Translations under genes and position numbers: made by a program
Source of the DNA: an uncultured virus (IMG/VR IMGVR_UViG_3300023108_000017)
Taxonomy: Duplodnaviria > Heunggongvirae > Uroviricota > Caudoviricetes
DNA length: 64,000 nt
Strand: one strand, 5' to 3'
Virus record (IMG/VR): IMGVR_UViG_3300023108_000017
Part shown: positions 5,085 to 56,479 of the stretch, in pieces
Layout of the letters: every line of letters starts with the position of its first letter
How positions within the stretch are numbered: position 1 is the stretch's first letter
The notes under the pieces: model-generated
Databases searched by the model: none
What the model was told of the DNA's origin: nothing
What the model saw: only the letters and a program-made list of their open reading frames with translations

Positions 5085-5529
5085 GAAGAAAATAGGCTGG
5101 CAAAAGTACGAAACGTTACTAGAAGAACAGTTGTCGTCTAACTTCTTGTTAAATCTATTAAGCAAACACAAGCTACACGTTGAGGATGTAGAAGAATACG
5201 ACAGCGATATTGTTGATGATAAAGACGAAGAAGATTCTTCTTCAGAAGCATTCATGATACCGATAACTAGCAAATTAATAGAAGAAGCCAACATTATACA
5301 AAATTTTGATTGCTGGATTGGTCATACAAATTTTGACATAACTCAAGATATTAAAGATAGCCTTGATACCATACAAGGCGTAGAGCTTATGAATATAATG
5401 AGTAGATATAGATTTTTTATAGGAATTGGAAGGATGTTTGAGTTTAAAAATGTTCGTAGATTGATAGAAAACACTTTGATAAAGGAGAATTTTGAAAATG
5501 AAAACCATGAACATAAATCAGAGAATTGA
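5068..5529 (+). CDS. hypothetical protein
   Basis: ORF track; acidic linker and a folded-looking C-terminus (CWIGHTNFDIT...SRYRFFIGIG). Confidence 0.75.
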   Translation: MSQKFKKKIGWQKYETLLEEQLSSNFLLNLLSKHKLHVEDVEEYDSDIVDDKDEEDSSSEAFMIPITSKLIEEANIIQNFDCWIGHTNFDITQDIKDSLDTIQGVELMNIMSRYRFFIGIGRMFEFKNVRRLIENTLIKENFENENHEHKSEN

Positions 5530-5977
5530 AAAAGCTTTAAAAGACCAAGACGTTGTTAAAATAATGAACAAGGCGTGTCAAAGCTTTTCGAGGCAATTGG
5601 ACCAAGACACAATCTACACATGTAAAATAAACGCGCTGTGGAAGTCTTTGGTTAACTACAACCCGTCAAAAAACACAAAGTTTACCACATATTTGTACAA
5701 GGGTGTTTTGATTGAGTGCTTGAAATCTATCAAGTTTGAAAACAAGGGTAAATTCGTCAAAAAAATATTACATGAAAATATACCTTCAAAATCTAATGAC
5801 AACATTCTAATAGAATTGGTAGACATACTAGACAGCGACGAGGATAAGCAGCTACTTATAGATAAATATATGAACAAAACTATTCAGGAAATGTCAGAAA
5901 GTAGATCTTATAGCCGTGAAACAGTCAGAAAAAAGCTAAAAAAAATCTACCACAAAATCAAAAAAGAATCTGAATAG
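5492..5977 (+). CDS. phage RNA polymerase sigma factor-like protein
   Basis: region 2-like ALWKSLVNYNPSKNTKFTTYLY and region 4-like HTH KTIQEMSESRSYSRETVRKKL. Confidence 0.75.
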   Translation: MKMKTMNINQRIEKALKDQDVVKIMNKACQSFSRQLDQDTIYTCKINALWKSLVNYNPSKNTKFTTYLYKGVLIECLKSIKFENKGKFVKKILHENIPSKSNDNILIELVDILDSDEDKQLLIDKYMNKTIQEMSESRSYSRETVRKKLKKIYHKIKKESE

Positions 5978-5987: not shown

Positions 5988-6047
5988 GCTAGGAGAGGAT
6001 TATTAAAGGACAAGGAAATGATTTAGTTCCAAAAAATGGAGATTATT

Positions 6048-6713
6048 ATGGCTACGGTTCAAGTTCAAGTTTTAGATGGAGCATCAACTTCAGCAACCAC
6101 TGAAAATAATGGTGGAACAGTTGTAAATGGTGGGAATATTCCAGCTGGAAGTCCAATGACTAACAATAGAAGCTTAGTAGATGTTGCTGACGGCGGTGAC
6201 GAATACGGCTCAGTAGTAGTAAAAAGAAATTTCCCCTCTAGTAAAGATTTTCGCGGCGCAATCGAAGCCAAAGGTCTAAACAATGGCACTTTTGCTTTTT
6301 ATCCTAACGCCCAAGAAGGAGAAAGAAATTTCTTGATTCGCGGAGTTGGTACGGCTGACGGAAACAATAAAATTAATAATTCTGCAAGTTCTGTAGTGGC
6401 CATGCCAGCCTCAGAGGTTGGATTGAGAAGTGTAAGCCCAATTCACCTGACCGTTTCAAGCGTACAGCTTGGTGAAGATGACGCTTCCTTTGATGTTCTA
6501 GCCAGACCTTCAACAGCAATGGTTCCGGGTAGAACAAAGGGTACAGATGCTGGTGCTGCATCAACATTTGTGAATCCTGAAGATGGCACTCCAGCAGTTG
6601 CTACGGAAATTCTTCCAAGCAGAGCAGTTCCGGGCGAACTAACCTATCATTTTGGTGGATTGGCAGCGCCAACAACTGACGAGTACAAAGCAAGAGATAG
6701 CTACGAAGCATAA
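6048..6713 (+). CDS. hypothetical protein, probably abundant virion component
   Basis: GGAG RBS at 6038-6041; Ala/Gly/Thr/Ser-rich; bracketed by a candidate promoter and a hairpin. Confidence 0.6.
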   Translation: MATVQVQVLDGASTSATTENNGGTVVNGGNIPAGSPMTNNRSLVDVADGGDEYGSVVVKRNFPSSKDFRGAIEAKGLNNGTFAFYPNAQEGERNFLIRGVGTADGNNKINNSASSVVAMPASEVGLRSVSPIHLTVSSVQLGEDDASFDVLARPSTAMVPGRTKGTDAGAASTFVNPEDGTPAVATEILPSRAVPGELTYHFGGLAAPTTDEYKARDSYEA

Positions 6714-6735
6714 TTAATTATATATTCTAGCTTAC

Positions 6736-6775
6736 GGAAAGCACTCCTAGTGGGTGCTTTCCACTCTTTCTTTCT
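6736..6775 (+). terminator. probable terminator hairpin
   Basis: GGAAAGCACTC-CTAGT-GGGTGCTTTCC followed by a pyrimidine-rich tract. Confidence 0.65.
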
Positions 6776-6792
6776 ACTTGGAGATTCTCACT

Positions 6793-7389
6793 GTGACCGA
6801 AATCAATCCAGAAATAATAGCAATTATCGTTGGATCAATTGGTAGTGTAATTGGATTCTTTACTTTTCTCTGGAAGAGGTTTGTCAAACCGCTTGTAAAA
6901 CTCGTTAAAAATCACGATGTTTTTATCAAGTCTGTGGATGATCTACGCCTTTTAATAGAAAAAGAATTACAAACAAATGGTGGAAATAGTATAAAAGATG
7001 CTATTATAGACATGAGAGCCACCTGTAGCAGAATAGAAGGAAGACAAAAAGTAATTATACAACGAACAAAAGCCGCTTTACATTACAGTAACGTTGCTTT
7101 GTTTGAGACAGACGCAGAAGGTAGATTGGTCTGGTGTAACGCAATGATGCAAGATTACACCAAAGACATAGTAAGTAGTATAGAGGGTTTTGACTGGATT
7201 AATCTTTTCGCAGAAGAAGAAAGAGAAGAAGTGCAAGCAGAATTCTTTTCTTGCTTAAAAATGAATAGAAGGTTTAACAAAACCACAAGACTTCAAAACA
7301 ATACAACGGTTAGGCTTATTGGCTACCCGTATAGGATTTCCGATAGTGAGCATGGCGGCTTTTTAATCAGTTTACAAGAAGAGGTATAA
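6793..7389 (+). CDS. membrane-anchored PAS-domain protein
   Basis: GGAG plus GTG 6793; TM IIAIIVGSIGSVIGFFTFLW; coiled segment; PAS pattern ALFETDAEGRLVWCN...IEGFDWINLFAEEEREEV. Confidence 0.7.
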   Translation: MTEINPEIIAIIVGSIGSVIGFFTFLWKRFVKPLVKLVKNHDVFIKSVDDLRLLIEKELQTNGGNSIKDAIIDMRATCSRIEGRQKVIIQRTKAALHYSNVALFETDAEGRLVWCNAMMQDYTKDIVSSIEGFDWINLFAEEEREEVQAEFFSCLKMNRRFNKTTRLQNNTTVRLIGYPYRISDSEHGGFLISLQEEV

Positions 7390-7391
7390 CA

Positions 7392-7616
7392 ATGGCTGAT
7401 ACAGACAATAATTCACCGGCTTTTAGTTTGAATGTTACAGACGTTCTTGAAATCAGTAAAAACACCGCACTTGTTGCTTTGGCTGCTGGTTTAACATATT
7501 TAGGCGAAAATTTAGCAGACCTAGATTTAGGTAATCTGGGCGTTATGTTTGTTCCAATCGCGGCAGTTGTTATTAATACTATCGTAAAGTGGGCCAAAAA
7601 TAACGTACCGGAGTAA
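7392..7616 (+). CDS. holin-like small membrane protein
   Basis: 74 aa with two hydrophobic helices and a basic C-terminal KWAKNN; GAGGT RBS. Confidence 0.55.
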   Translation: MADTDNNSPAFSLNVTDVLEISKNTALVALAAGLTYLGENLADLDLGNLGVMFVPIAAVVINTIVKWAKNNVPE

Positions 7617-7620
7617 AAAA

Positions 7621-8541
7621 ATGTTTAATAAACCTAGAGATCTACTTAATGCTTACAAGGATGGTTTTGTAGGCTCATGGTGTGACCCCGAAGACACGGA
7701 CAAACTTCTTGGTGAGCTGCCGCACCCCTTGTTTGGTGTGGCAGCTTCTGATTTATACAGCAGCGGAAAAGGTAAAACGGCATTACTCTATAAGTCTGTC
7801 CAGAAATATGATCCCACGTTTGGCGGTCACGAACGACAGGTTACGGGGGATTGTGTCAGTCACTCTACACGCAACGCCGTAGACGTTACCAGAAGCCATG
7901 AAATTATTGGTGGGGATAGAGAAGATTTTGTTGCCAGAGGTGCTACAGAAGCTATTTATGGATCTAGAGGTCATGGCGGTCAAGGTATGTCATGCTCTGT
8001 TGCTGCTAGATTCGTCCACCAAAATGGCGGAATTTTAGTAAGAAAAGATTATGGTTTTGTAGATTTATCTAAATATGACGGAATGCTTGGCGCTGGTTGG
8101 GGAAGAAGAGGAGTGCCTTCTGAAGTTGTAAAAGAGGGTAAAAGGCATCAAGTTAAAACCATTAGTATGATTAAGTCTGTAGAAGAAGCTAGAGATGCCA
8201 TTGCCAATGGGTATGCTTTAAGTGTCTGTAGTAATTATGGATTTTCATCACGCAGGGATAAACATGGTATAGCCCGTAAATCTGGATCATGGAATCACGC
8301 AATGGCATGGACGGCGATGGACGATTCCCACGAAGTATATAACGAAACTTTATTCTTAATACAAAATAGCTGGGGAGTATTTAATGGTGGCCCAAAGCGT
8401 TTTGGACAGCCAGAAGGGTCTTTCTGGATTAGGGAAAGAGATGCCGCCGGTATGTTAAACCAAAATGGAGCGTGGGCATTTAGCGATGTTGACGGCTTTC
8501 CTCCACGAAAAGTAAAATGGACTATAGACGAGGTATTTTAA
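7621..8541 (+). CDS. papain-like (C1-family) cysteine peptidase
   Basis: QVTGDCVSH (oxyanion Q, catalytic C), WNHAM (H), IQNSWG (N) and GSFWI. Confidence 0.85.
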   Translation: MFNKPRDLLNAYKDGFVGSWCDPEDTDKLLGELPHPLFGVAASDLYSSGKGKTALLYKSVQKYDPTFGGHERQVTGDCVSHSTRNAVDVTRSHEIIGGDREDFVARGATEAIYGSRGHGGQGMSCSVAARFVHQNGGILVRKDYGFVDLSKYDGMLGAGWGRRGVPSEVVKEGKRHQVKTISMIKSVEEARDAIANGYALSVCSNYGFSSRRDKHGIARKSGSWNHAMAWTAMDDSHEVYNETLFLIQNSWGVFNGGPKRFGQPEGSFWIRERDAAGMLNQNGAWAFSDVDGFPPRKVKWTIDEVF

Positions 8542-11500
8542 TGTCTTCACAATATAAGCATATTCAGCTTAGGCGCGGCAAACAATCTGCATTCCATCAG
8601 TCCAACCCAGTATTAAAAGAAGGTGAACCGGCTTTTGCTGTAGATGTTGGTCAGCTAAAAATAGGAGACGGGAAAAAACCTTGGAGTGAATTGCCTTCAT
8701 TTCATAACAATGTTTTAAAATCAGTATCTGTAGACATTCCAGCAATACAAGCAAATACTTCGGAAACGGTAGCAATTACTGTTGCAGATATAGATGCTAG
8801 AAATACCTATGCCGTACTTGTCGTGCCAGACTCTATTTTACCAGACTATGTTACTATCAGATATGCTTATGTATCAAACGATAATGAAGTTTCTGTAGTT
8901 CTAACTAATGTTGATAACTCAGCAATTGACGGGAATGAAATAAACAATTATTCTCCAGCAACAAGTGATGTAAAGCTAAGCGTTGTAATATATTTTGTAA
9001 ACATTTTCTCAGAAACAGTTATTACAACAACAACCCCAGATCCCGTTGTTGATGATGTTCTTTCTTACGGATATAACGAGTTTGGTCAATTGTCCTTATC
9101 AGATAATTTAGATAAACTACAGCCAACTCTAGTATTTGATAATGGAAAAAAGTGGTCAACCTTTGAGCTTGGAAATTATCATACTCTAGCCTTAGATTAT
9201 GATAAAATTTTACATTCTTGCGGTTACAATTATTACGGGCAGTTAGGAATAGAATCTAATGGTGTTGGAACAAACATAAAAGATCTATCAGAAATACAAA
9301 ACACATACTTTAAAAACGGTGAAGTTTTTAGTTCTGGTTATCCGATTAAGCAAACTTGGTCAAGAATATCGGCTGGATCACATCACTCTTTAGCAATAGA
9401 TAGTAGCGGCAATTTATTTTCGTGTGGTGATGGATCTTATGGGGCTTTAGGTCTTGAAGATACAAACGCTAGAGATGCTTTTACAATTATTGGAAAAGAC
9501 GTTTACTTTGTAGATCTAAATAGACTAACAGAGAACGGAATTAACTCTGTAGATAACAGGTTCACATTAAATGATATTAATATCAACGCTAATTTTATAG
9601 CCAATAACGGAAAATACATTGTTAGCGGTATATCTCCTAGTAACGCAATTTCTTTAGTTCATAATTCCACCGCTGACATTATTGCATATTCTGGCGGCGT
9701 ATTAGAACAAACTATAAATAACCAAAGATACTATTCAGACTACCTTCTTATCGATGTTTCTGGAGATTATAACAAGGCAAGCTTAACATCTTTAAATGGT
9801 TCTTATTTAAATAACGGACAAGATATTCTTTATTACAAAAGCTTAAACGGTGGCTGGCAAGAAGTGTCTGCTGGTAATCACCACTCTTTAGGTATAAAAA
9901 ATAATGAGTTATACACTTGGGGCAATAATAGCTTTGGGCAACTTGGCGACGGCGATCACAGAGATGTTCACGTTCCACAAAAAATTACAGATAAAAATGA
10001 CTGGGTTCAAGTAAAAGCAGGCAACAGTCACTCGTTGGCTCTTGATAGTAATGGAGATATATACGCTTTTGGGAATAATCAATATGGACAGCTTGGTATT
10101 GGCAGTGTCAACCACGCTGATATTCCAACAAAAATAAACTTTGATTTTTCACAAATACAAGACGTTAATTTTACATATCTTCCTTCAGGTTCATACGTAG
10201 ACGTACAAGAATACAATCATAAACAGGTGTACGTTTTAGACTACACTCAGGGTAAGCAATATAATCCTCTGGAGCGCTTTGTGCTATCTAGCGGACAGTA
10301 CATAATTTACAATGTCCCACAATCAGATCCAATCGCTATTTTAAACAGAGGAAAAACAAATACTATTAAATACAATGGAGATATCAACGGTGGATGCTTG
10401 AATTTAGTTAACACAACTGCCGATGGAACTTATAATTTCTATTATGGAAACGTCTATATTGACGTTCTAGGAAATTTTGACAAGGTTAGTATATATTCAT
10501 ACAATCATGGATACATGGGAGGAAAAAATCTTCTATTTTACGAAAAACCAAATTATGTTATTGAAGATATATCAGCTGGAGCAAACCATAGCTTAATTAA
10601 AACGGATACAGATCAAGTTTTGAGTTTTGGTAGAAACCATAAAGGTCAGCTTGGTACTGGTGACAATTTGGACAGATCAGTTCCGTTTAGACTTAGTGAA
10701 AGTAATATTGAAAAAATATCTACTGGTGCAAACCATTCTCAACTTGTTGATAATCAACATTACATATGGTCGTTTGGAGACAACGACCGTGGACAATTAG
10801 GATTAGGAGATAGAGTTCCTAGAAATCTTCCTTCACAAATGCAGTCTCCAATACGATGGCAAAACACGTTCAATGGTGGAGATCATTCTTACTCAACAGT
10901 ATTAAGTTATTTTCCCAATGTTCCCACAAACTTAAATGTTGAAAATGCAAACACCAGTAATATTGTTGGTAATCGACAATTACTAGTATCATGGAGTCAT
11001 GAAACAGCTCTACAGGAAGCAGTTACTCATTACGTCATTGAATACTCTATTGATAACGGAGTAACTTGGTCCGTTTACAGTAACAATGCTTTGTCAAACA
11101 ATTTTAATAATCAGCAACCACAAGTATCAAATCTTTCATTCATCTTAGACGGGCTGAATAATTCAGAAAGTTATTTAGTGAGAATAGCTGGGGTCAATCG
11201 TGTTGGCAAGGGACAGTACACATCAACTTCTCAGCCTATTTCGCCAGAAGAAGCTACGGACGGATTATTTGATAGCGTGATTCTTTATTCACACTTCGAC
11301 AATAGTTTAGATGATTTATCGAATAACAGTTATCCTTATGACACAAGTTTCTTGACTAATATCGACAGTGAAGGAACAAGATATCTAGACGGAGCATTCT
11401 CAGAATGCTTAAGATTATATCGTTACGACTCAATGAGATATGATACTAGTTTCAATCTCGATGGAGAGTATACAATTGAATTTTTCTTTAATCCAAGAAA

Positions 11501-11939
11501 TAGATCTGAAGACATCAATGCTAATCCTTCTGGAAACCCAATCATTACGCTAAATGACAGCAACAGTAATCAATATCTTAATATTATGTATTACGGTAAC
11601 GATACAACTGGATATGATCTTAAGATATTTAAAACTGACGGAACAAATTTAATAAATATTCAAGATTACAACTTCAATGGTTTTGACCACATAGCACTAA
11701 CAAGAACAAGCGGAATTCCAGACAATCCATCGAGCGTGGAATTGCTACAACTTTACATAGATGGAAACGTTGTCGCAAGCGGAAGAGATAGTTCTAGTTA
11801 TGTAATAGATTCTGTGCTATTAGGATCTGGCCAATATTTCCACGACTTTGAAATTGACGAATTACGGCTCTCAAGCGGAATAAGGTATGACAATAATTTC
11901 ACACCAACAACCAAACCTTTCGGTATAGGATTATCATAA
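8541..11939 (+). CDS. tail fibre/adhesin: Mtd-like N-terminal anchor, 7 RCC1 repeats, FN3, LamG/concanavalin-like domain
   Basis: IQLRRG...NPVLKEGE...KIGDG; seven G-x-N-xx-GQLG-type repeats; YVIEYS...W...LDGLNN..SYLVRIAGVN..G.G (FN3); YTIEFF...HIAL...LYIDG...IDELRLS (LamG). Confidence 0.85.
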   Translation: MSSQYKHIQLRRGKQSAFHQSNPVLKEGEPAFAVDVGQLKIGDGKKPWSELPSFHNNVLKSVSVDIPAIQANTSETVAITVADIDARNTYAVLVVPDSILPDYVTIRYAYVSNDNEVSVVLTNVDNSAIDGNEINNYSPATSDVKLSVVIYFVNIFSETVITTTTPDPVVDDVLSYGYNEFGQLSLSDNLDKLQPTLVFDNGKKWSTFELGNYHTLALDYDKILHSCGYNYYGQLGIESNGVGTNIKDLSEIQNTYFKNGEVFSSGYPIKQTWSRISAGSHHSLAIDSSGNLFSCGDGSYGALGLEDTNARDAFTIIGKDVYFVDLNRLTENGINSVDNRFTLNDININANFIANNGKYIVSGISPSNAISLVHNSTADIIAYSGGVLEQTINNQRYYSDYLLIDVSGDYNKASLTSLNGSYLNNGQDILYYKSLNGGWQEVSAGNHHSLGIKNNELYTWGNNSFGQLGDGDHRDVHVPQKITDKNDWVQVKAGNSHSLALDSNGDIYAFGNNQYGQLGIGSVNHADIPTKINFDFSQIQDVNFTYLPSGSYVDVQEYNHKQVYVLDYTQGKQYNPLERFVLSSGQYIIYNVPQSDPIAILNRGKTNTIKYNGDINGGCLNLVNTTADGTYNFYYGNVYIDVLGNFDKVSIYSYNHGYMGGKNLLFYEKPNYVIEDISAGANHSLIKTDTDQVLSFGRNHKGQLGTGDNLDRSVPFRLSESNIEKISTGANHSQLVDNQHYIWSFGDNDRGQLGLGDRVPRNLPSQMQSPIRWQNTFNGGDHSYSTVLSYFPNVPTNLNVENANTSNIVGNRQLLVSWSHETALQEAVTHYVIEYSIDNGVTWSVYSNNALSNNFNNQQPQVSNLSFILDGLNNSESYLVRIAGVNRVGKGQYTSTSQPISPEEATDGLFDSVILYSHFDNSLDDLSNNSYPYDTSFLTNIDSEGTRYLDGAFSECLRLYRYDSMRYDTSFNLDGEYTIEFFFNPRNRSEDINANPSGNPIITLNDSNSNQYLNIMYYGNDTTGYDLKIFKTDGTNLINIQDYNFNGFDHIALTRTSGIPDNPSSVELLQLYIDGNVVASGRDSSSYVIDSVLLGSGQYFHDFEIDELRLSSGIRYDNNFTPTTKPFGIGLS

Positions 11940-12997
11940 TGGCAGAAAACAAAAACACAACAACAATACAGTTCAAAAGAGGAACTGCCGCCGAGTTGGC
12001 TAGTTATGTTCCGAGTTCTGGAGAGCCAGTTTTCGCTACAGACTTAAAACTTTTAAAAGTCGGTGACGGACAACAATCTTTTGAGGATATCTCATCACCA
12101 CCCAGCGAAGCCTCTGTTTATTACGTTCACAACAATACCGGAAATACAATTTATAAAGGTCAAGCAACATACACTAACGGTGTAACCGCTGGTGGAAAAA
12201 TTATTACTATTGATAGATATATAGCTGATGGTACAATCGAATCAATAAGATTTTTAGGTTTAGCAAAAGAAGATATTGCTCACGGTAGCGATGGAGAAAT
12301 TGTACACTTCGGACATGTTACACATGTGAACACCACTTCTAATGGGGTAAACATTAACGCAACTGGATCTGATTTTCAGCAGGGAGATATTTTATACGCA
12401 AGCCCAACGGTTGCAGGCACTCTTACTACCACAAAACCAACACAGGGAGCAATTTCTGTAGCTTTTGTTTTAGATGCTGGTACTAATGGAGAATTATTTG
12501 TAAGACCCTCCATAGAAGAAGACGATTATTCCGTTGACGAAGTTACAGTTAGTTCTACCCCGCTGAGTAACTGGAATGTAGGTGGATCTTCTGCTAATTT
12601 TGTTAAAGTTACCCCAACGACAGGAACTAATATAACTGGTATAGATAAAAACTACAAACACAAAAGATTCACTATTTTAAATGACTCGTCAAGCTATAAT
12701 ATTACTTTAACTCCTCAAGCTGTTGGAAGTTCGGCTGGAAATAAACTTAGATTTTCTGAAGGGGTTGGAAGTATACTTTACCCAAAAGAAAAAGCAGACT
12801 TCATATATGACAACATAGACGAAGAATGGCTTGTGGTTAAACACGGAATTAGCTCTAATACTAAGCCAATAACTAATGCTTATGGGTCAGCAGTTGTGAG
12901 TGGTGTATATAATGCTGTAATTGTAAGTAGCGGTACATATAATCACTTACAACAAAACAACATAACAGATCCAAACACAATATATTTCGTTCCATAA
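11939..12997 (+). CDS. tail fibre protein with Mtd-like N-terminal anchor
   Basis: IQFKRGTAAE...GEPVFATD...KVGDG; C-terminal DPNTIYFV motif. Confidence 0.75.
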   Translation: MAENKNTTTIQFKRGTAAELASYVPSSGEPVFATDLKLLKVGDGQQSFEDISSPPSEASVYYVHNNTGNTIYKGQATYTNGVTAGGKIITIDRYIADGTIESIRFLGLAKEDIAHGSDGEIVHFGHVTHVNTTSNGVNINATGSDFQQGDILYASPTVAGTLTTTKPTQGAISVAFVLDAGTNGELFVRPSIEEDDYSVDEVTVSSTPLSNWNVGGSSANFVKVTPTTGTNITGIDKNYKHKRFTILNDSSSYNITLTPQAVGSSAGNKLRFSEGVGSILYPKEKADFIYDNIDEEWLVVKHGISSNTKPITNAYGSAVVSGVYNAVIVSSGTYNHLQQNNITDPNTIYFVP

Positions 12998-13007
12998 GAG
13001 GTAAACA

Positions 13008-13112
13008 ATGCCACCAATTTACCTTGGAGATAAAGCTGTAACAGTATATAAAGGTGATACAGTAGCTAGCAATGTTTCCATAGGAACAGTAATCGTACAA
13101 GCGTACACATAG
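13008..13112 (+). CDS. 34-aa fibre-associated micro-protein (absent from ORF track)
   Basis: GAGGT RBS, ATG 13008, TAG 13110-13112; MPPIYLGDKAVTVYKGDTVASNVSIGTVIVQAYT. Confidence 0.7.
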   Translation: MPPIYLGDKAVTVYKGDTVASNVSIGTVIVQAYT

Positions 13113-13134
13113 TCAAAAACATAAGGGGTTTAAC

Positions 13135-13902
13135 ATGCCAGATTATAGCAAAACGAGAATCCAATTTAGAAAAGGAACTGCTGCCGAATGGGGCGCTGCC
13201 GCACCCGTAGTATTGGCTAGTGGAGAACCGGGATTTGTAACAGACACCAACACGCTTAAAATCGGTGATGGATCTACTGTTTTTTCTTCACTAAGCGCAA
13301 TTACTGGTGGTGGTGGTGGTGGTGGATCTGAAGTAAATGATTTAACATCGATTGTAACATGGACCAATGTGCCAGATGCTAACATTACCGAAAGTTCGGT
13401 TGTTCAACATTCTGGAGCTTTACAAGTCACCGAATCGCAAGTAGTAGACTTGGGGGCATATATCACAACAGAAACAGACCCTGTTTTTACCGCACATACT
13501 GTTAGTAGCATTACGGATGGGACCGGCTTGTTACAAAATGATGGAGCGGGCAATTGGAGTTACGATAACTCGACATATTTAACCTCAGTGACAAACATAG
13601 ATACAACTAATTTTAATGCAACAGCAATCGTTACAGAGACTGAAGGTATTAGTAGCAACGATAATGATACTACTCTACCTACATCGGCGGCTGTAAAAGA
13701 TTATGTAGATAATAACGCTGGCACTACCTATACGGCTGGCGATGGATTGACTCTTACCGGCACAGAATTTAGTGCAGATTTATTAAGCGACACTTCTGCC
13801 GTTGCTAATTCTGTTCAAATTACAAATATTGTAGCTATTAGTCAGGCTAATTATAATAGTTTGGGTAGTTACGACGCTAATACTCTATATTACATAACAT
13901 AG
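13135..13902 (+). CDS. tail fibre protein with Mtd-like N-terminal anchor
   Basis: IQFRKGTAAEW...GEPGFVTDT..LKIGDG; LPTSAAVKDYVD; YTAGDGLTL; C-terminal YDANTLYYI. Confidence 0.78.
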   Translation: MPDYSKTRIQFRKGTAAEWGAAAPVVLASGEPGFVTDTNTLKIGDGSTVFSSLSAITGGGGGGGSEVNDLTSIVTWTNVPDANITESSVVQHSGALQVTESQVVDLGAYITTETDPVFTAHTVSSITDGTGLLQNDGAGNWSYDNSTYLTSVTNIDTTNFNATAIVTETEGISSNDNDTTLPTSAAVKDYVDNNAGTTYTAGDGLTLTGTEFSADLLSDTSAVANSVQITNIVAISQANYNSLGSYDANTLYYIT

Positions 13903-13909
13903 GTTTAAC

Positions 13910-15520
13910 ATGAAATTTGGATCTACAGATATTTCACAACACTATGTTGGTTCATCGCTCGTTCCACGTATTTATAACTGTGAAGATACTAATTATGTAC
14001 GAAGCGAAACTGCCTTTGATGCAGATGTTTTAATTGTTGGTGGTGGTGGCGGTGGTGGTACGGCTCTTGGAGGGGGAGGTGGTGGTGCTGGTGGATATAG
14101 AGAGTTCACAAAGAAGTACTATACTGGAACAAGTTACACTGTAACTGTTGGTGCTGGTGGATCAGCTAATTCTGTGGGGAGCGATTCTTCAATAGAAAGA
14201 ATTGGTTCAGGTGGTGGTGCTGGTGGTGTAACAACTGGTGGCAATGGCGGTTCTGGCGGTGGAGGAAATGGCTTTCTGTCTAATGCTGGTGGATCGTCCA
14301 CATCGCCAAGATGCAACGGTTCTGCACAAGGTAATGATGGAAGCGGAGGGAACGGCGTATTTGCCCAAGGTGGTGGAGGAGGTGGAGCTAATGCAGCTGG
14401 TTCTGGCGCTGGTAATGGAGGTAACGGAACAGCGAGTTCAATCACCGGATCTAGTGTGACAAGAGCAGGCGGCGGTGGTGGTGGAGATACTAGTGGTGGT
14501 GGGGGTAGCACTGCTACTCCCGGTTCTGGAGGTTCTGGTGGAGGTGGTGACGGTGGATCTGGTAATCAAACAAATGATTCTGCCGCTGCTGCTGGAGATA
14601 ATGGTACAGCCAATACTGGTGGTGGGGGCGGTGGAGGAGCATACTATCACGACTCTTCTACTGGATGGAATCTAGGTGGCACTGGTGGTAACGGAGGTTC
14701 TGGATTTGTTTGTATTAAGTTCCCAGACACCATTACAATAACAATTGGCGGCGGCTTAACATACACATCATCCACAAGCGGCGGCTATACTACTGTTCAG
14801 TTTACTGCTGGTACTGATACTATTGAATTTTTCTGGAATCCAAAAACATATAGCGGTTTAGAGCTTTGGCTAGACTCTAACGATAGTGAAACTATCACAT
14901 TAAACGGTGGAACTGTAAGTCAGTGGGATGATAAGTCTGGGAATGATTATCACGTATCCCAAGGTACAGCTAGTAACCAACCCGCACTAACTTCTAATGT
15001 ATTAAATGGTAGGGATGTTTTGAGATTTGATGGGGGCGATTGGCTTGAGAATTTGGTCGCTACACCCGTTGGCGGTTCAACTAATAGAACTATTTTTATC
15101 GTGGCTAACTATACTGGAAGTAGTATAGATTATCTACTGTATCTTGGCACAGCATCAAACTCCCCTTCAAATGGTAGTGTTTTTGGAGTTAGTCAAGAAA
15201 CAGCAGTCAGAGTGTCTAATGGCAATAGAATATTTAATGATAGTGTTTCATCTAGTCATAGTATTTTATCATTAATTCTAGACGGGACAACTACTTCGGA
15301 TTTATCAGCATGGAAAAACGCAACATCATTAGGTGTGAGTTCAACAAATAATCAAACAATTAATACTAGTTCTCGTTTTTATGTTGGCGGTCCAACATCC
15401 ACTGTTGGAGGTTTATTAGAAGGAGATATTGCAGAAGTAATTATATATAACTCGGCATTATCAACCGCTCAAAGACAGCAAGTAGAAAGCTATCTAAGCA
15501 ATAAATGGGGTATAACATGA
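13910..15520 (+). CDS. glycine-rich fibre protein with C-terminal lectin/LamG-like domain
   Basis: VLIVGGGGGGG...GGGAGG, YTVTVGAGG, GTANTGGGGGG, GGSGFV; then LELWLDS...QWDDKSGN...GDIAEVIIYNSALS...YLSNKWG. Confidence 0.8.
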   Translation: MKFGSTDISQHYVGSSLVPRIYNCEDTNYVRSETAFDADVLIVGGGGGGGTALGGGGGGAGGYREFTKKYYTGTSYTVTVGAGGSANSVGSDSSIERIGSGGGAGGVTTGGNGGSGGGGNGFLSNAGGSSTSPRCNGSAQGNDGSGGNGVFAQGGGGGGANAAGSGAGNGGNGTASSITGSSVTRAGGGGGGDTSGGGGSTATPGSGGSGGGGDGGSGNQTNDSAAAAGDNGTANTGGGGGGGAYYHDSSTGWNLGGTGGNGGSGFVCIKFPDTITITIGGGLTYTSSTSGGYTTVQFTAGTDTIEFFWNPKTYSGLELWLDSNDSETITLNGGTVSQWDDKSGNDYHVSQGTASNQPALTSNVLNGRDVLRFDGGDWLENLVATPVGGSTNRTIFIVANYTGSSIDYLLYLGTASNSPSNGSVFGVSQETAVRVSNGNRIFNDSVSSSHSILSLILDGTTTSDLSAWKNATSLGVSSTNNQTINTSSRFYVGGPTSTVGGLLEGDIAEVIIYNSALSTAQRQQVESYLSNKWGIT

Positions 15521-15852
15521 TCTATTATGTATTTGATACAGAAAATGAAGCGATAGCTGCTGAAAACTTAATTGTTAACAATATTAAGTCATGGGTTGAA
15601 ACATACACCCCTTCGGTTATTAATGATTCTGGAGACGCTATTGTTGGAAGAAGACCTCAAACTGGAGAAGTGGCTTCAGGACAAACATCTAGGTGGGCAA
15701 TCCCAAAAGAAAGATTAGATGGTAAATGGGTATTTGAAAAGCCAACCGCTATTCATCTTGGCCCAATACCGTTATCAACTGTTATTAGCGGAGTGACCGC
15801 TGTAGAGCAAGCTTATGAAGATTCTTGGTTCCCAGAGCCAGAGGTGATATAG
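15517..15852 (+). CDS. hypothetical protein (possible fibre assembly factor)
   Basis: ATGA overlap with the upstream stop; RWAIPKERLDGKWVF motif. Confidence 0.6.
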   Translation: MIYYVFDTENEAIAAENLIVNNIKSWVETYTPSVINDSGDAIVGRRPQTGEVASGQTSRWAIPKERLDGKWVFEKPTAIHLGPIPLSTVISGVTAVEQAYEDSWFPEPEVI

Positions 15853-16233
15853 ATGCCATATTATGCAATATTAGACGAAAACAACATAGTAACCACAGTT
15901 ATTGCTGGTAAGGATGAAAATAGCACAAATTGGGAGGCGTACTATAGTTCTCTGCTTGGTAAAACTTGCAAGAGAACATCGTATAATACAAGGGCTGGCG
16001 TTCACGCAGAAGGTGACACTCCCTTTAGAAAAAACTATGCTGGAATAGGTTACTCATACGATGAAACTAGAGATGCCTTTATTCCACCAAAACCATACAA
16101 CAGCTGGGTTCTTGTAGAAGATTCATGCACTTGGGAAGCTCCAATAGCACAACCAAACGATGGAAATGCTTACATTTGGAATGAAAACACAACAAACTGG
16201 GAAATTTTCGAAATACCTAATAACGGAGAATAA
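15853..16233 (+). CDS. conserved phage protein typically adjacent to Gly-rich fibres (possible chaperone)
   Basis: YAILDENNIV...RTSYNT...RKNYAGIGYSYDETRDAFIPPKPYNSW...WEAP pattern recognised from aquatic phages. Confidence 0.7.
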   Translation: MPYYAILDENNIVTTVIAGKDENSTNWEAYYSSLLGKTCKRTSYNTRAGVHAEGDTPFRKNYAGIGYSYDETRDAFIPPKPYNSWVLVEDSCTWEAPIAQPNDGNAYIWNENTTNWEIFEIPNNGE

Positions 16234-16235
16234 AC

Positions 16236-16478
16236 ATGGCCATTGTATCAACAACAGACGTAGTTCAAAATATAGATTCAACTAGAGAAGTAGCACGTAA
16301 CGCAAGCGTGGTGTGTAGCTGCTTTCCAACTGGAGAATCATTTACTGTCGATACCAATACAGACAGTAATTTTGTCAACTTCGACACAAGTTTAACATAC
16401 ACGGCAGTCGAATCCTTGTATACTTCAAGATTTGATGATATCGCATATTACAATGCGGTTAACGGAGGTACTCCATGA
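16236..16478 (+). CDS. hypothetical protein
   Basis: GGAG RBS; ORF track. Confidence 0.7.
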   Translation: MAIVSTTDVVQNIDSTREVARNASVVCSCFPTGESFTVDTNTDSNFVNFDTSLTYTAVESLYTSRFDDIAYYNAVNGGTP

Positions 16479-16879
16479 AAAAATTTCTTGATTATGTTAT
16501 AGTATCTTTAGTTTCAGTCATACTGACCCTCTCGCTAGCCCCAAGCATTCCCAAAGTAATAGACGGGGGAAGTCCTTGGTCTAGCGGGTTTAATAATGGT
16601 TATAGTTGCAACACCAGTGAAATAGCCAAGATGTATGAGGGTTACGTTAATGAATGGAAAAAAGATATTTCAAAGTCATTTGACGAAGCCGAGACAATAG
16701 TTTTCAATGTAACTCCTACTCCAGACATTATTGGGCCTCATGAAGACCCTAAAAAATGTATCTGTAAAGGTAGCGGAGTAATTGTACAAGGAGATGGACA
16801 TAAAACAGTTTGTCCATACCACGGATCTAAATTTGGCAAAGACGTTATTATTAAACCATTACAGACATTGGAGGAATAA
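16475..16879 (+). CDS. exported/membrane protein with Zn-finger-like motif
   Basis: N-terminal hydrophobic signal; CICKGSG...GDGHKTVCPYH. Confidence 0.65.
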   Translation: MKKFLDYVIVSLVSVILTLSLAPSIPKVIDGGSPWSSGFNNGYSCNTSEIAKMYEGYVNEWKKDISKSFDEAETIVFNVTPTPDIIGPHEDPKKCICKGSGVIVQGDGHKTVCPYHGSKFGKDVIIKPLQTLEE

Positions 16880-17146
16880 ATGGAACCAGAAATGATGTTT
16901 AGAATTGCGGCAATTTTAGTCGCTTCCTTTTTATTACTATCAGGAGCAAATTATCAACCCATGCTTAATTGGGCCAAAAGTTTATTCAAGAAAAAGAATG
17001 TAGTAATCCCATCTAATTCAGGCGTAAATTTCTTAGACGTTGTTAGCTCTTGGCACACAGTCAAAGAACAGTGCGTTGAATTAGGGCTACATGAAGCTGC
17101 TGAAAAATTAGATGAGGTATTTCCTCTTTTAAATTCGGAGGACTAA
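16880..17146 (+). CDS. small membrane protein
   Basis: GGAGG RBS; N-terminal TM helix. Confidence 0.7.
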   Translation: MEPEMMFRIAAILVASFLLLSGANYQPMLNWAKSLFKKKNVVIPSNSGVNFLDVVSSWHTVKEQCVELGLHEAAEKLDEVFPLLNSED

Positions 17147-17147
17147 T

Positions 17148-17615
17148 ATGTACAAAAGAATAATAGCAGTTGTTTTGTTGCTTTATTCTGTGTTTGGTCA
17201 AGGTTTACTAGACGGTTTTGATAAACCAGAACCCAAGCCAGAGCCTAACCCTGCGGCAGAAATACTGAATGTAGAAAAACCAACAGAAAAAATCTTAAAA
17301 GATATCAGTGTTTTTTCAGACATAGTATCTGAGCCTTCCGATAGGGCTAAGTTGGCTATTTTTAATTATGAATTTGCTGAAAGAGTTTCTGGTTATGAAA
17401 CATCTGTGCAGCAGGTAAACGACGTTTATGCTTTTGCTGGAAAAATTTTTTTCAAGAAAAAACTCGTAGACAAATACGAGGGACTATCTGAAAACCTAAA
17501 AAGAATTCTGGAAAAAATTCTAACAAATGATGATCACCTAGTAACCGCAGAAGAAAAACAATCTCTTCATGAGTATTTTATGGGAATAGCGTGGGTATTA
17601 ATTCAAAAGGGGTAA
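17148..17615 (+). CDS. exported protein with Pro-rich linker
   Basis: signal-peptide-like N-terminus; KPEPKPEPNP linker. Confidence 0.7.
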   Translation: MYKRIIAVVLLLYSVFGQGLLDGFDKPEPKPEPNPAAEILNVEKPTEKILKDISVFSDIVSEPSDRAKLAIFNYEFAERVSGYETSVQQVNDVYAFAGKIFFKKKLVDKYEGLSENLKRILEKILTNDDHLVTAEEKQSLHEYFMGIAWVLIQKG

Positions 17616-17618
17616 GCC

Positions 17619-18251
17619 ATGTCTCCAAAAGAAATAAGCGAAGTTCTATTTAAAATTTTTAGTGACGAGGGATTTAGTGTAAATGGATTTAAGATTAAAT
17701 CAGAAAGCCCCCTTGTTGCAAACGTCTATAATGATGGCGAAAGATCAACTATAAGTTTTGGAACTAATTATCCCAAAGCAGAAATTACCCGCCTAATAAC
17801 TTTGTACGCATATATTGAACAATTAGTTTTCAGAAAAGATGGTGGAACTGTTAGGCTTAAGAACTTCCCAGACATTAGTTTTGGTTATGATAAATCAAGT
17901 ATACTTGATTTTCTAGATCACTTAACGTATGCTGGCCACCAGTGTCAAATAGAAGAAGAAATAAAAGAAAAATATTCCGATGATACAAAAAGAAAAATCG
18001 CTAAAGACTGCTTGCAATACGCCACAGAATGGGCTACAATAGTTAGTCAGTCTGGTGGATTTTGCGAGGCTGGACCATCAAAAAGAAAAGAATTGAAACG
18101 CCAGTGCTATAATTTTGTTGTAGAAAACGTAAGGGAAAACGCGAAAGAAAAAAAATATGGGTCCGTAATATTGACATATCTCTTGGTATTCATTATAATA
18201 CCAGCAGTTGCTAGATTTATTATTGTGAGATTGCTTGAAAAATATTTCTAA
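17619..18251 (+). CDS. hypothetical protein with C-terminal TM helix
   Basis: YGSVILTYLLVFIIIPAVARFII. Confidence 0.7.
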   Translation: MSPKEISEVLFKIFSDEGFSVNGFKIKSESPLVANVYNDGERSTISFGTNYPKAEITRLITLYAYIEQLVFRKDGGTVRLKNFPDISFGYDKSSILDFLDHLTYAGHQCQIEEEIKEKYSDDTKRKIAKDCLQYATEWATIVSQSGGFCEAGPSKRKELKRQCYNFVVENVRENAKEKKYGSVILTYLLVFIIIPAVARFIIVRLLEKYF

Positions 18252-32340: not shown

Positions 32341-33900
32341 ATGAATTGGTTCCCTTTGCGTAATTTTACACATTACAGTTTGCTAAAAGGATTCTCAAAA
32401 CCAACTGAACTTGCAAAGATTTGTGCTGATAATGATTATCCAGCATGTGGTATTGCAGATTACAAATCTATATCTGGTTGCGTATCATTTTTTCAGGCTT
32501 GCAAGAAAGTCGGCGTTAAGCCAATCCTTGGATGCTCCTTTGATAACACCACAGTCTTTGCTAGAAATAAAGATGGATGGTTTGACTTAATAGAAATTGT
32601 GTCATCTCTAGATGAAGATGGAAATGTTAATACAAAATTCTGTCAAGAGATTATGTCGAGAGACAATCTTATAGCTACAAGTAAAGATATTCAGCCAAGC
32701 TACTACGCTGAGTCTAAGCAGGCAGATCTGCATAGAGTATTATTATGTTCAGCGTTAAAGACCACGTTACCTAAAATACAAAAACAGCTTCGCAAGAACG
32801 AACTGGACAAAGCAGTATCGGAGTATTTTACACACGACGACAAGTGCATACAGCCCGCTGCGGTAACAAAAGAACTGCAACTTGTCTATGAGGTGTGTGA
32901 GGATTATGACATTCTCAGTCCACCCATGCTTCCTAAGTTCGATTGTCCAAACGGACTATCCGAAGAAGATTATCTAAAAGTTCTTGCTAGAGAAGGTTGG
33001 AAACGCCACCTTATTGATACTGGCAAAGTAAAGAAACCAGAAGACAAGCAGAAATATCTAGATAGATTCAATTCAGAACTACAAGTCATTAAAGATGCAA
33101 ATCTATTTGGTTATTTCCTCATTGTGCAGGATATAATCAGGCACGTAGAACATGACATGGGGTGCTTGGCTGGTCCGGGTAGAGGTTCTGCGGCTGGATG
33201 CTTGATATCATACTTAATTGGTATCACAAAGATTGACCCAGTAGAATACGACTTGCTGTTTGAAAGATTTTACAACGCTGGACGAAACACTGATGGTCAT
33301 GTATCTCTACCAGATATTGATATGGACGTTCCGGGTAAGAGGCGTGATGATGTTATAGATTATCTCAAGGACAAGTACGGCAAAGACCATGTGAGCCAAA
33401 TGATTACATTCGGTAGACTGCAAGGGCGAAGCGCAATAAAAGAAGTGCTGCGTATAAATGATGCGTGTTCTTTTGGCGAGATGAACGCTATAACAAAGAG
33501 TATACCAAACGAAGCAGATATTTCTGATCAACTTGCAGACATGGATGATGAAGATAGATCTATTATTCGTTGGTCATTATTGAATCGTGCTGACGAGTTG
33601 AGAGATTTTTGCCACATTCTGGAAAATGGAAAACTGGAAGGCGATTACGCGCAATATTTCCAGCAAGCTATAGACATTGAAGGAACTTTTAAAACACAAG
33701 GTAAACACGCCGCAGGCGTGGTCATATCGAAAGATCCGCTACATAAAGTATGTCCAATGGTTAAGCAGAAAGGATCGTCAGAAAAGATTGCAGGATTGGA
33801 AATGTCCGACTTAGAGGCTCTAGGTCATGTAAAATTTGACGTTCTAGGAATTAATCTCCTAGATAAACTAATGAAAATACAGGAGATAAAGAATGGCTAA
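32341..33900 (+). CDS. dnaE: DNA polymerase III alpha, N-terminal half (degenerate PHP, palm, thumb)
   Basis: YFLIVQD, GPGRGSAAGCL, LLFERF, PDIDMD, HAAGVVI and KFDVLG; stops shortly after the third catalytic Asp. Confidence 0.95.
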   Translation: MNWFPLRNFTHYSLLKGFSKPTELAKICADNDYPACGIADYKSISGCVSFFQACKKVGVKPILGCSFDNTTVFARNKDGWFDLIEIVSSLDEDGNVNTKFCQEIMSRDNLIATSKDIQPSYYAESKQADLHRVLLCSALKTTLPKIQKQLRKNELDKAVSEYFTHDDKCIQPAAVTKELQLVYEVCEDYDILSPPMLPKFDCPNGLSEEDYLKVLAREGWKRHLIDTGKVKKPEDKQKYLDRFNSELQVIKDANLFGYFLIVQDIIRHVEHDMGCLAGPGRGSAAGCLISYLIGITKIDPVEYDLLFERFYNAGRNTDGHVSLPDIDMDVPGKRRDDVIDYLKDKYGKDHVSQMITFGRLQGRSAIKEVLRINDACSFGEMNAITKSIPNEADISDQLADMDDEDRSIIRWSLLNRADELRDFCHILENGKLEGDYAQYFQQAIDIEGTFKTQGKHAAGVVISKDPLHKVCPMVKQKGSSEKIAGLEMSDLEALGHVKFDVLGINLLDKLMKIQEIKNG

Positions 33901-34573
33901 TAGGGATTATATTGTATTTGACTTTGAGACAGGATCTCGCAATCCTCATAAAACACAGCCGACGCAGATAGCGGCAGTAGCTCTTGACGGAAGAAGCTTA
34001 ACACTTAAGGGAACTTTTAATAGTGAAATTAAACCTATTCTTGATGACGATGAAGCAATTGCTGCTGGAATAGATCCAATTGAAGAAGGAGCATTAAAAG
34101 TCACTGGCAAAACCAGAGAGGGACTAGCTAAAGCACCAGCTTTAAAATCTGTTTGGAATAAGTTTACAAAGTTTGTTGATCAATACAACTGGAAGGGGGA
34201 ACCATTCTTTGCTCCGATACCTGTAGGATATAACATTATCGGCTTTGATATGATTATTATCAACAGGCTTTGCAAGCAATACGGCCAATGGGATAGTAAT
34301 CGTAGTCAACAAAAACTATTTAGCAAGGTTTACAAAGTAGATCTTATGGACAATGTGTTCTTGTGGACTGAGGGTGATCCTAGCGTTAAATCAATTAGCA
34401 TGGATTCTTTACGTGAACGTATGGGGCTGTCTTCAGAAAACGCTCACGACGCATTGCAAGACGTTAAGGACACTGCTAACATATTCATAAAGCTTCTGAA
34501 AACGCATAGGGCTGTTTACCAAAACATTGAATTTGAAAAGGCATTTGCTAATGGAAATCTCTATATTAAATAG
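33893..34573 (+). CDS. dnaQ: DEDDh 3'-5' exonuclease (DnaQ/epsilon-like)
   Basis: ExoI VFDFETG, ExoII GYNIIGFD and ExoIII AHDALQD. Confidence 0.9.
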   Translation: MANRDYIVFDFETGSRNPHKTQPTQIAAVALDGRSLTLKGTFNSEIKPILDDDEAIAAGIDPIEEGALKVTGKTREGLAKAPALKSVWNKFTKFVDQYNWKGEPFFAPIPVGYNIIGFDMIIINRLCKQYGQWDSNRSQQKLFSKVYKVDLMDNVFLWTEGDPSVKSISMDSLRERMGLSSENAHDALQDVKDTANIFIKLLKTHRAVYQNIEFEKAFANGNLYIK

Positions 34574-35087
34574 CTCATTGACACAAACAAAAAAGCAGTT
34601 ATTGATAAAGGAAGTTATCATACCTTATCATCCATCTTTTGCAGAAGCTGTTAATATCGAAAAAATTAATCCAGAATGGTTTGATGTTTCTCTTCTTTTA
34701 GAAGAGGCGATGTCACACGTTGGTGGGTACGAAAGAATAGACTGTCACCACATGGACTTTAGTGACGGAAGCGATTGTAAGTCTTCTACTATAAATAATA
34801 GAAAAAGAGGATTAGTTGATAGGGTTGTTTCGCACGGAGGAAAAGAAAAACGTGGAACCCTAAGAGTAGTTGTATACAACTCAATAAAACAAAATGTAAT
34901 GTATTACGCATTACCTAAGAAAGATTGGATTAAAATGGTAAGTATACACCCTACAAATAAACAGGGTTCAATAAGCTACGGCTACAAGACCGAAGAAGAT
35001 GCTATACCTAAATTTGAACAATTTAGATGTAAAACGTTTGAAGAGTTATGTTTAACTAAGAATCAAGAATATGATGATGGAATATAA
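34527..35087 (+). CDS. hypothetical protein, putative PD-(D/E)xK endonuclease
   Basis: LLEE...MDFSDGSDCKS resembles E...D-x5-DxK; true start uncertain. Confidence 0.5.
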   Translation: MNLKRHLLMEISILNSSLTQTKKQLLIKEVIIPYHPSFAEAVNIEKINPEWFDVSLLLEEAMSHVGGYERIDCHHMDFSDGSDCKSSTINNRKRGLVDRVVSHGGKEKRGTLRVVVYNSIKQNVMYYALPKKDWIKMVSIHPTNKQGSISYGYKTEEDAIPKFEQFRCKTFEELCLTKNQEYDDGI

Positions 35088-50151: not shown

Positions 50152-50153
50152 GT

Positions 50154-54137: not shown

Positions 54138-54145
54138 ATAAGATC

Positions 54146-56478: not shown

Positions 56479-56479
56479 A

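Follow-up and report, generated by a model that had tools for sequence, protein, structure and literature searches.

Can a phage tie the moment of host lysis to the internal state of the cell? The question is raised by three adjacent genes in a 64,000-nucleotide stretch of DNA from an uncultured virus of the Caudoviricetes (IMG/VR record IMGVR_UViG_3300023108_000017), the whole of which is referred to below as the window. They encode a membrane-tethered protein with a PAS domain (gene 1), a small membrane protein (gene 2) and a papain-type cysteine peptidase (gene 3), and their coordinates are collected in Table 1. An earlier note on this DNA had described them as tightly spaced and as a candidate signal-responsive lysis cassette; the spacing was confirmed, with intergenic gaps of 2 and 4 nucleotides, and profile-profile comparison shows the N-terminal module of gene 1 to be homologous to membrane proteins of phage lysis regions. 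That genes 1-3 are the core of the phage's host-lysis cassette is the favoured reading, to which an even chance is given; that the PAS domain of gene 1 senses a signal is considered doubtful.

The first gene: a lysis-region membrane hairpin joined to a PAS fold

The protein encoded by gene 1 begins with a hydrophobic helix (residues 4-28) followed by a cluster of Lys and Arg residues which, by the positive-inside rule, would place the rest of the protein in the cytoplasm. In its AlphaFold2 model (mean predicted local distance difference test, pLDDT, 77.9; 79-93 per 10-residue block in the PAS part) a long helix (6-61) breaks at N62-G-G and is followed by a second helix (65-97) and by a compact five-stranded PAS fold (approximately residues 99-198, nucleotides 7087-7386), whose strands lie at 102-106, 112-115, 161-167, 172-181 and 187-196 with helices in between. 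The motif at the break, N62-G-G-N-S-I-K-D69 (nucleotides 6976-6999), is strongly conserved: N62, G63, G64, S66, K68 and D69 are invariant in 24 homologues. The start at 6793 is preferred because the longer alternative, GTG 6754, falls within a terminator-like hairpin (6736-6762), while GTG 6793 is preceded by a GGAG; most homologues are 193-204 amino acids (aa) long, in agreement with this start.

The PAS fold was recognised by structure. In a Foldseek comparison of the model with the PDB, 206 matches reached E<=1e-3 and, among the matches listed, all are PAS/LOV domains; the nearest solved structures are LOV proteins with 22-24% identity. A sequence profile of gene 1 found nothing significant in the PDB (best E 0.25), and the curated Pfam cut-off is not reached (PF00989, 17.8 bits versus 22.6); when the homologues were compared with Pfam at E<=1, 14 of 24 matched PAS_9 (best E 3.7e-4). 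The description of gene 1 in the earlier note is largely borne out: the single N-terminal membrane helix is there, the protein has no kinase or other output domain, nor any domain beyond membrane helix, hairpin and PAS, and the kinship of the NGG.SIKD motif with small lysis-region membrane proteins emerges from the homology and gene neighbours described below. The PAS-like domain stands as a fold in AlphaFold2 and Foldseek, although the Pfam PAS models stay below their cut-off.

The family is large. A word-indexed search returned 364 homologous proteins at E<=1e-3, and an exhaustive profile search 1893 cluster representatives at the same threshold, 484 of them at E<=1e-10; most of the 150 hits listed are 180-240 aa long and are matched over the motif and the PAS part. 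A diverse alignment shows a constant plan composed of a membrane helix, a variable linker, the sequence x-E-L-x-P-N-G-G-S-S-L-K-D, a helix and the PAS domain. The motif region is matched by phrog_9869, a PHROGs family of 98 positions and of function unknown, in 19 of 29 members of the wide family (hmmscan); the window protein itself gave no direct match to it at E<=0.01.

A motif scan of viral contigs yielded 40 loci of this PAS type and another 40 whose short proteins stop after the hairpin. Seventeen of the short proteins (63-131 aa, all but one 63-91 aa) were aligned and compared by hhalign with the gene-1 family, with a probability of 97.6% and E 2.8e-12 over the membrane helix, the motif and the next helix; with the wider PAS family the probability rises to 99.2% (E 2.5e-19). 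Thirty-two of the short-type loci were read, six others being dropped for match statistics identical to those of another locus, one as a duplicate and one for want of a callable open reading frame (ORF). Within two genes of the motif protein, seven of the 32 have a Pfam-confirmed CHAP or SLT_3 enzyme; in a further 14 the position that CHAP occupies in sister loci is taken by a phrog_32486 protein (four scanned against PHROGs, the rest assigned by visible similarity), one has an unscanned look-alike of the SLT_3 gene, and ten have nothing recognisable nearby. The phrog_32486 protein clusters in the ESM Atlas with VldE / Extensin-like_C, which is a lead only, and phmmer found nothing for it in the PDB, so that its enzymatic nature is suggested by that lead and by its position. 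At least seven short-type loci also carry, within two genes, a small membrane protein of one alignable family, and three of its four scanned members match phrog_37724.

A cultured representative is found in Thermobifida phage P1312, in which a 147-aa motif protein is encoded directly 5' of the annotated endolysin, an N-acetylmuramoyl-L-alanine amidase. This protein (P1312_040, L094:4707-5150) is annotated as 'sensory protein kinase CreC'; being a single-helix membrane protein that ends in P-N-A-G-G-S-L-R-D, it looks wrongly named. Since the first approximately 90 residues of gene 1 are homologous to the short lysis-region proteins, gene 1 can be described as a lysis-cassette membrane module to which a PAS domain has been fused.

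The small membrane protein and the papain-type peptidase

Gene 2 has one clear membrane helix at approximately 49-66, which contains the invariant Pro55 and is preceded by an acidic loop, and a 14-residue hydrophobic stretch (25-38) rich in Ala, Gly and Thr; two membrane segments are plausible from this sequence, not secure. The ESM Atlas relates it to automatically named 'Holin family protein' clusters (0.95) and to the r1t holin (0.88), to be taken as a lead only. In one relative (L061, 5575-5757) its place is taken by an unrelated ORF of 60 aa that has two hydrophobic stretches, which suggests that the position is a slot for a small membrane protein. A complex prediction in which residues 1-100 of gene 1 and gene 2 were supplied as alignments gave no answer (score 0.00), speaking neither for nor against binding. 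On its sequence, gene 2 is holin-like only and a weak holin candidate.

The identification of gene 3 as a cysteine peptidase, already made in the earlier note, is confirmed by a papain fold and invariant catalytic residues. Its model has a predicted template modelling score of 0.82, with approximately 70 extra N-terminal residues of low model confidence, and of the 262 PDB matches that Foldseek returned at E<=1e-3, all those listed are C1 peptidases, the best of them xylellain (3ois, E 4e-9). The catalytic residues Q73, C78 (nucleotides 7852-7854), H226 (nucleotides 8296-8298) and N249-S250-W251-G252 do not vary among 19 sequences with identities as low as 39%. The Pfam cut-off for PF00112 is not reached (17.5 bits versus 20.7); 11 of the 19 relatives match this model at E<=1 (best E 2.2e-5), and the sequence profile found nothing in the PDB at E<=1. 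The folds of gene 1 and gene 3 alike were identified by structure comparison only, PDB sequence profiles having failed. No signal peptide or membrane segment was found in gene 3.

In two relatives, L025 (5803-7740) and L029 (5807-7849), the peptidase is interrupted by an intein of approximately 340-375 residues that directly precedes the catalytic Cys78; these inteins start with Cys and end with H-N or K-N, followed by C-V-S-H, so that their +1 residue is the catalytic Cys itself. Their position exactly at Cys78 indicates that the active site is under strong selection. The peptidase coordinates of L031 are identical to those of L029, and in L050 the peptidase gene is interrupted at a similar place and read as two ORFs.

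Whether another lysin is encoded was addressed in the most complete relatives. Six-frame searches of three complete relatives (159-167 kb) and two partial ones found no Phage_lysozyme, Amidase_2, SLT, Peptidase_M15_4, Peptidase_M23, CHAP or NLPC_P60, each of the seven families being detected in control genomes. In the complete relative G007 (166.6 kb), a Pfam scan at E<=1e-4 of 230 of 234 ORFs (the four spanning locus joins excluded) found no wall hydrolase, and the only peptidases that it found were trypsin-like and ClpP. The papain-type peptidase of G007 itself is matched by the gene-3 profile with E 8e-178, and by no Pfam family at E<=1e-4. Because none of the searched wall-hydrolase families is present in the complete relatives, the papain-type peptidase is, by exclusion, the best lysin candidate; this exclusion is moderate evidence only, since a novel hydrolase would escape detection. 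Gene 3 belongs to no known wall-hydrolase family and is a candidate for peptidoglycan cleavage only by position and exclusion.

Conservation of the neighbourhood and alternative readings

Synteny was counted in 80 related viral loci, 69 of them with distinct gene-1 DNA. Conservation is nearly complete for the pair, gene 2 following gene 1 directly in 79 of 80 loci, and looser for the peptidase, which has a homologue in 65. Among these 65 loci the peptidase is directly 3' of gene 2 in 61: in 57 the best match lies within 120 nucleotides of gene 2, and in four more it is adjacent with an insertion. The remaining four, from divergent relatives, have one or two membrane-protein genes between gene 2 and the peptidase and a lipobox lipoprotein gene after it, an order of membrane protein, peptidase and lipoprotein that resembles the layout of holin, spanin and lysin genes.

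Downstream of the peptidase, the window has tail-fibre genes (8517-16233) and then a block of five small genes, the products of four of which bear a signal peptide, a membrane anchor or a C-terminal membrane helix (Table 1). Homologues of at least four of the five stand directly after the peptidase in relative L050, with partial series in L025, L070, L077, L080 and L083; in G007 four of the five are found together, a few kb downstream of the peptidase. The protein with the Cys motif has a lipobox in relatives (e.g. L-G-C or L-T-G-C), and its window copy is anchored and without the lipobox Cys. None of the block's proteins matches PHROGs or Pfam. This block may be the envelope-disrupting part of the cassette.

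According to the favoured reading, gene 1 would span the membrane once, with its N-terminus outside, and would expose to the cytoplasm a hairpin with the NGGxSxKD turn, to whose second helix the PAS domain is fused. Gene 2 would be its small hole-forming partner, in a pair akin to the holin-like proteins Gp4/Gp5 of mycobacteriophage Ms6. Gene 3, having no export signal, would gain access to the envelope only after the membrane has been opened, and would then cut the peptide links of the wall. By dimerising or by binding a signal, the PAS domain would alter the pairing or oligomerisation of the membrane module and in this way shift the lysis time; gene 1 might then act as an antiholin.

Several observations weigh against this reading. 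With regard to gene 2, what the earlier note had called a two-TM holin-like protein retains one strong helix, while the other stretch is short, neither Pfam nor PHROGs gives it a match to a holin family (or to anything else), and a basic C-terminal tail is absent, residues 67-74 (WAKNNVPE) having a net charge of 0. The protein is acidic overall and, among 120 of its 1043 homologues listed, none is named holin by any source and none has a Pfam domain; a proposed homology to the small two-helix partners of the short-motif loci was dropped (hhalign probability 1.4%). With regard to gene 3, its end overlaps the start of a 1140-aa tail-fibre gene (Mtd_N, RCC1 repeats) by 25 nucleotides, we know of no C1 peptidase acting as a phage endolysin, and a literature search judged by titles and the beginnings of abstracts found no C1-family endolysin. 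The peptidase is missing from 15 of the 80 loci; 11 of these 15 relatives have approximately 4.7 kb of downstream sequence, with ribonucleotide reductase directly after gene 2, and a 105-kb contig (63% complete) keeps genes 1 and 2 and has neither the peptidase nor the tail-fibre genes nor any of the five envelope genes. The persistence of genes 1 and 2 in these genomes implies that they do not form an obligate unit with the peptidase.

The PAS-fused proteins of other phage groups add to these objections. Twenty-two of the 40 PAS-type loci were read, of the others 17 belonging to the window's own phage group and one being a near-duplicate; the listed neighbours extended to at most three genes on the upstream side and four on the downstream side, and 105 of 139 neighbouring ORFs were scanned against Pfam, short or antisense ORFs judged spurious being omitted. 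Recognised lysis genes were near only six of the 22, namely a wall hydrolase in five (Amidase_2 in the mutually related L097, L105 and L112, Peptidase_M15_3 in L107 and Phage_lysozyme in L134) and an Rz-like spanin in one (L096). The other 16 adjoin terminase/portal, capsid, glycosyltransferase, tail-fibre, integrase or nucleotide-metabolism genes, and these mixed surroundings indicate that PAS fusions of this type also occur outside lysis cassettes. Finally, a conserved Cys or His was sought across the wide PAS family and none was found; there is no sign of a cofactor.

This last result bears on the role of the PAS domain within a lysis cassette, which could also be that of a cytoplasmic dimerisation or docking domain fixing the stoichiometry of the membrane module, with no sensing; such a role is possible, if on the doubtful side. 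Beside the lack of conserved Cys or His, the only invariant positions of the wide family are E105, G110, W135 and D69. In flavin-binding LOV domains of the PAS type a conserved Cys stands in the motif G-x-N-C-R-F-L; the gene-1 family has instead G-F-D-W or G-x-G-W after the second strand, as placed by sequence order with no structure-based alignment. Moreover, PAS-less short forms hold the same cassette position in other phages, so that the membrane module would work without a sensor. A passive domain is less easily reconciled with the PAS part being strongly conserved and the most confidently modelled portion of gene 1, and with the wide occurrence of the fused form, whose 484 representatives suggest that the domain adds something selectable; in addition, PAS domains often bind ligands that are not predictable from sequence.

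Genes 1 and 2 could instead be a conserved inner-membrane module with a role outside lysis, such as superinfection exclusion, interference with host signalling or the membrane anchoring of a phage process, next to an unrelated and exchangeable peptidase. Their pairing in nearly all loci and the loss of the peptidase in some, the 16 PAS-type homologues of other phage groups away from recognised lysis genes and the absence of gene 2 from any holin family are all in line with this alternative, which is nevertheless judged rather unlikely: the N-terminal module of gene 1 has homologues in the short proteins of lysis cassettes, and the gene-2 replacement in L061 points to a place in the locus for a small membrane protein. 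Independent exchange of holins and endolysins is common, and the loss of the peptidase is therefore compatible with a lysis role of genes 1 and 2, from which it does not separate them.

It is distinctly improbable that the peptidase is not a lysin and acts instead as a virion- or tail-associated entry enzyme or as a protease processing phage or host proteins, its location reflecting a variable region that also collects tail-fibre genes: its stop overlaps the tail-fibre gene, the interval between gene 2 and ribonucleotide reductase is highly variable among relatives, and C1 peptidases are general proteases, xylellain being the closest solved structure, but in the four divergent relatives, which have no tail-fibre genes nearby, the neighbours of the peptidase are genes for membrane proteins and a lipoprotein, the main structural genes are distant and on the opposite strand, and the seven wall-hydrolase families are lacking in the three complete relatives, one of which is also negative across all Pfam. 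A role of gene 1 as an anti-sigma factor, a sigma-like gene being located two genes upstream of it in 75 of 80 loci, was rejected, as its topology is opposite to that of anti-sigma factors and no sigma-factor gene was found among the scanned neighbours of the 22 homologues in other phage groups.

Genome context and relation to known lysis systems

The window is a portion of a large uncultured phage genome of water/aquatic origin; related viral contigs reach 167 kb, and two with terminal repeats are rated complete. It encodes ribonucleotide reductase, dUTPase, PhoH, a RecA-like protein, DnaB helicase, primase and a DnaE-type polymerase in two ORFs, together with many glycosyltransferases, tail fibres and giant structural proteins.

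Table 1. Position of the three genes and of associated features in the window.
Feature	Position	Strand	Length	Remarks
Terminator-like hairpin	6736..6762	+		11 pairs and T-run, 3' of the preceding 225-aa gene
Gene 1, membrane-tethered PAS protein	6793..7389	+	198 aa	GTG start, GGAG 8 nucleotides upstream
Gene 2, small membrane protein, holin-like candidate	7392..7616	+	74 aa	Weak hydrophobic stretch 25-38, strong membrane helix 49-66
Gene 3, papain-family (C1) cysteine peptidase, candidate lysin	7621..8541	+	306 aa	No signal peptide
Five small genes, possible envelope-disrupting part	16236..18251	+		Homologues directly 3' of the peptidase in relatives
Envelope block gene	within 16236..18251	+	80 aa	
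Envelope block gene	within 16236..18251	+	134 aa	N-terminal anchor, C-terminal Cys motif; lipobox lipoprotein in relatives
Envelope block gene	within 16236..18251	+	88 aa	N-terminal membrane helix
Envelope block gene	within 16236..18251	+	155 aa	Signal peptide, Pro-rich linker
Envelope block gene	within 16236..18251	+	210 aa	C-terminal membrane helix

Genes 1-3 are probably transcribed by leakage through the hairpin that precedes them. This hairpin, the strongest terminator-like one of the region, follows the gene of a 225-aa protein (6036-6713), which has no family match, is present in 79 of 80 relatives and is possibly produced in abundance; upstream of it is the sigma-70-like gene (5492-5977), with weak matches to regions 2 and 4. 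On the other side, the tail-fibre cluster, distant from the main structural genes, comprises the 1140-aa protein (which also has fn3), two more Mtd_N proteins and a glycine-rich 536-aa protein, and its content is strongly variable among relatives, like that of a host-range cassette.

Farther away, the DnaE-type (Pol III alpha) polymerase is split between ORFs 32341-33900 and 35071-36636, which are separated by an RNase T-like exonuclease gene (33893-34573) and a 186-aa ORF (34527-35087); in G007 the polymerase is likewise in two ORFs, with only the exonuclease gene between them. The minus strand of 46945-63967 carries giant ORFs of 1068, 1327 and 2495 aa, with no PHROGs match and an FG-GAP repeat as the sole Pfam match; homologues are found in relatives G002 and G007. 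G007 also encodes a trypsin-like peptidase, ThyX, a GMP reductase/IMPDH-like enzyme, ferritin, UvdE, a lipid desaturase, a sulfotransferase, a GDP-mannose dehydratase and a second sigma-like protein.

Against GenBank phages, tblastn left gene 1, gene 3 and protein P0154 unmatched, protein P0211 gave a single short match, to Thermobifida phage P1312, and a short motif protein matched two uncultured records; a DNA search with positions 6000-12000 of the window gave zero matches. Bacterial and archaeal species genomes contained one weak relative, on a 2.6-kb contig of a Pyrinomonadales metagenome-assembled genome. Its 225-aa protein (L084:1163-1840) has the membrane helix, hairpin and PAS plan and is preceded by two genes for membrane/coiled-coil proteins and followed by an ORF resembling a small terminase subunit; the contig is probably a prophage or phage fragment, and the match gives no clue to the host.

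Among characterised systems, the closest worked-out analogue of the pair formed by genes 1 and 2 is Gp4/Gp5 of phage Ms6. Gp4, with two membrane helices of which the first is weakly hydrophobic and signal-arrest-release (SAR)-like, and Gp5, with one, interact and jointly set the lysis time (PMC6116114). The likeness consists of two adjacent small membrane proteins, one with two segments (the first weak) and one with a single segment, and the stretch 25-38 of gene 2 resembles the weakly hydrophobic first segment of Gp4 (PMC6116114). The two pairs have no sequence relationship; here the single-helix partner comes first and has a PAS domain on its cytoplasmic side, and a papain-type peptidase stands in place of LysA. 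The homologous short proteins of the phrog_9869 type, including gp40 of P1312, share with gene 1 the membrane helix, the E-L-x-P-N-G-G-S-S-L-K-D turn and the following helix; unlike gene 1, which has a longer first helix and the PAS domain, they end after the hairpin (63-147 aa).

For signal-dependent timing, the nearest analogue is holin T and antiholin RI of T4: in lysis inhibition, RI binds T and shifts the lysis time upon a signal (PMC11413866). There is no homology between the two systems and, in contrast to the periplasmic RI, which responds to superinfection, the putative sensor of gene 1 is cytoplasmic and has a PAS fold. VqmA of vibriophage VP882 has a PAS fold too, and switches the phage towards lysis. 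It is a soluble DNA-binding transcription factor, whereas gene 1 is membrane-anchored, has no DNA-binding domain and is located among lysis genes; the VP882 receptor is described as homologous to the Vibrio quorum-sensing receptor VqmA (PMC8284805).

Gene 3 is comparable to xylellain and the cathepsins (C1A) in its fold and in its catalytic Gln, Cys, His and Asn-Ser-Trp-Gly, and differs from them in its low identity (12-17%), its Pfam score below the cut-off, its phage origin, its cytoplasmic location and the additional N-terminal residues. In the lambda-type lysis cassette, the S holin and the R endolysin are accompanied by the Rz/Rz1 spanins. The locus resembles it in having a small membrane protein beside an enzyme without an export signal, followed in relatives by an anchored protein and a lipoprotein; it differs in that no lambda-family protein is present, the enzyme is a protease and a PAS protein has been added.

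The finding that the N-terminal module is homologous to short lysis-region proteins, the tally of the genes around these proteins and the size of the PAS-fused family are new here, as are the persistence of genes 1 and 2 without the protease block and the intein at the catalytic cysteine. No report of a PAS domain in a holin, antiholin or lysis-cassette protein was found among titles and the beginnings of abstracts, in a search that did not cover subscription journals. Lysis timing sets burst size and phage fitness and, to our knowledge, few controls of it have been described: holin dual starts, T4 lysis inhibition and quorum-sensing transcription factors. If the favoured reading is true, the direct fusion of a PAS domain to a membrane protein of the lysis cassette would provide a post-translational route from the internal state of the cell to lysis, in a form that is apparently widespread in uncultured aquatic phages, as the 484 cluster representatives indicate. 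It can be proposed, tentatively, that a large uncharacterised phage family joins a PAS sensor to a lysis-cassette membrane module and times lysis in many lineages by an intracellular signal, such as energy, redox or a metabolite, and that here a papain-type protease replaces the known endolysin families. If so, a C1 papain-type lysin would be a new enzyme class in phage lysis and, possibly, in enzyme-based antibacterials.

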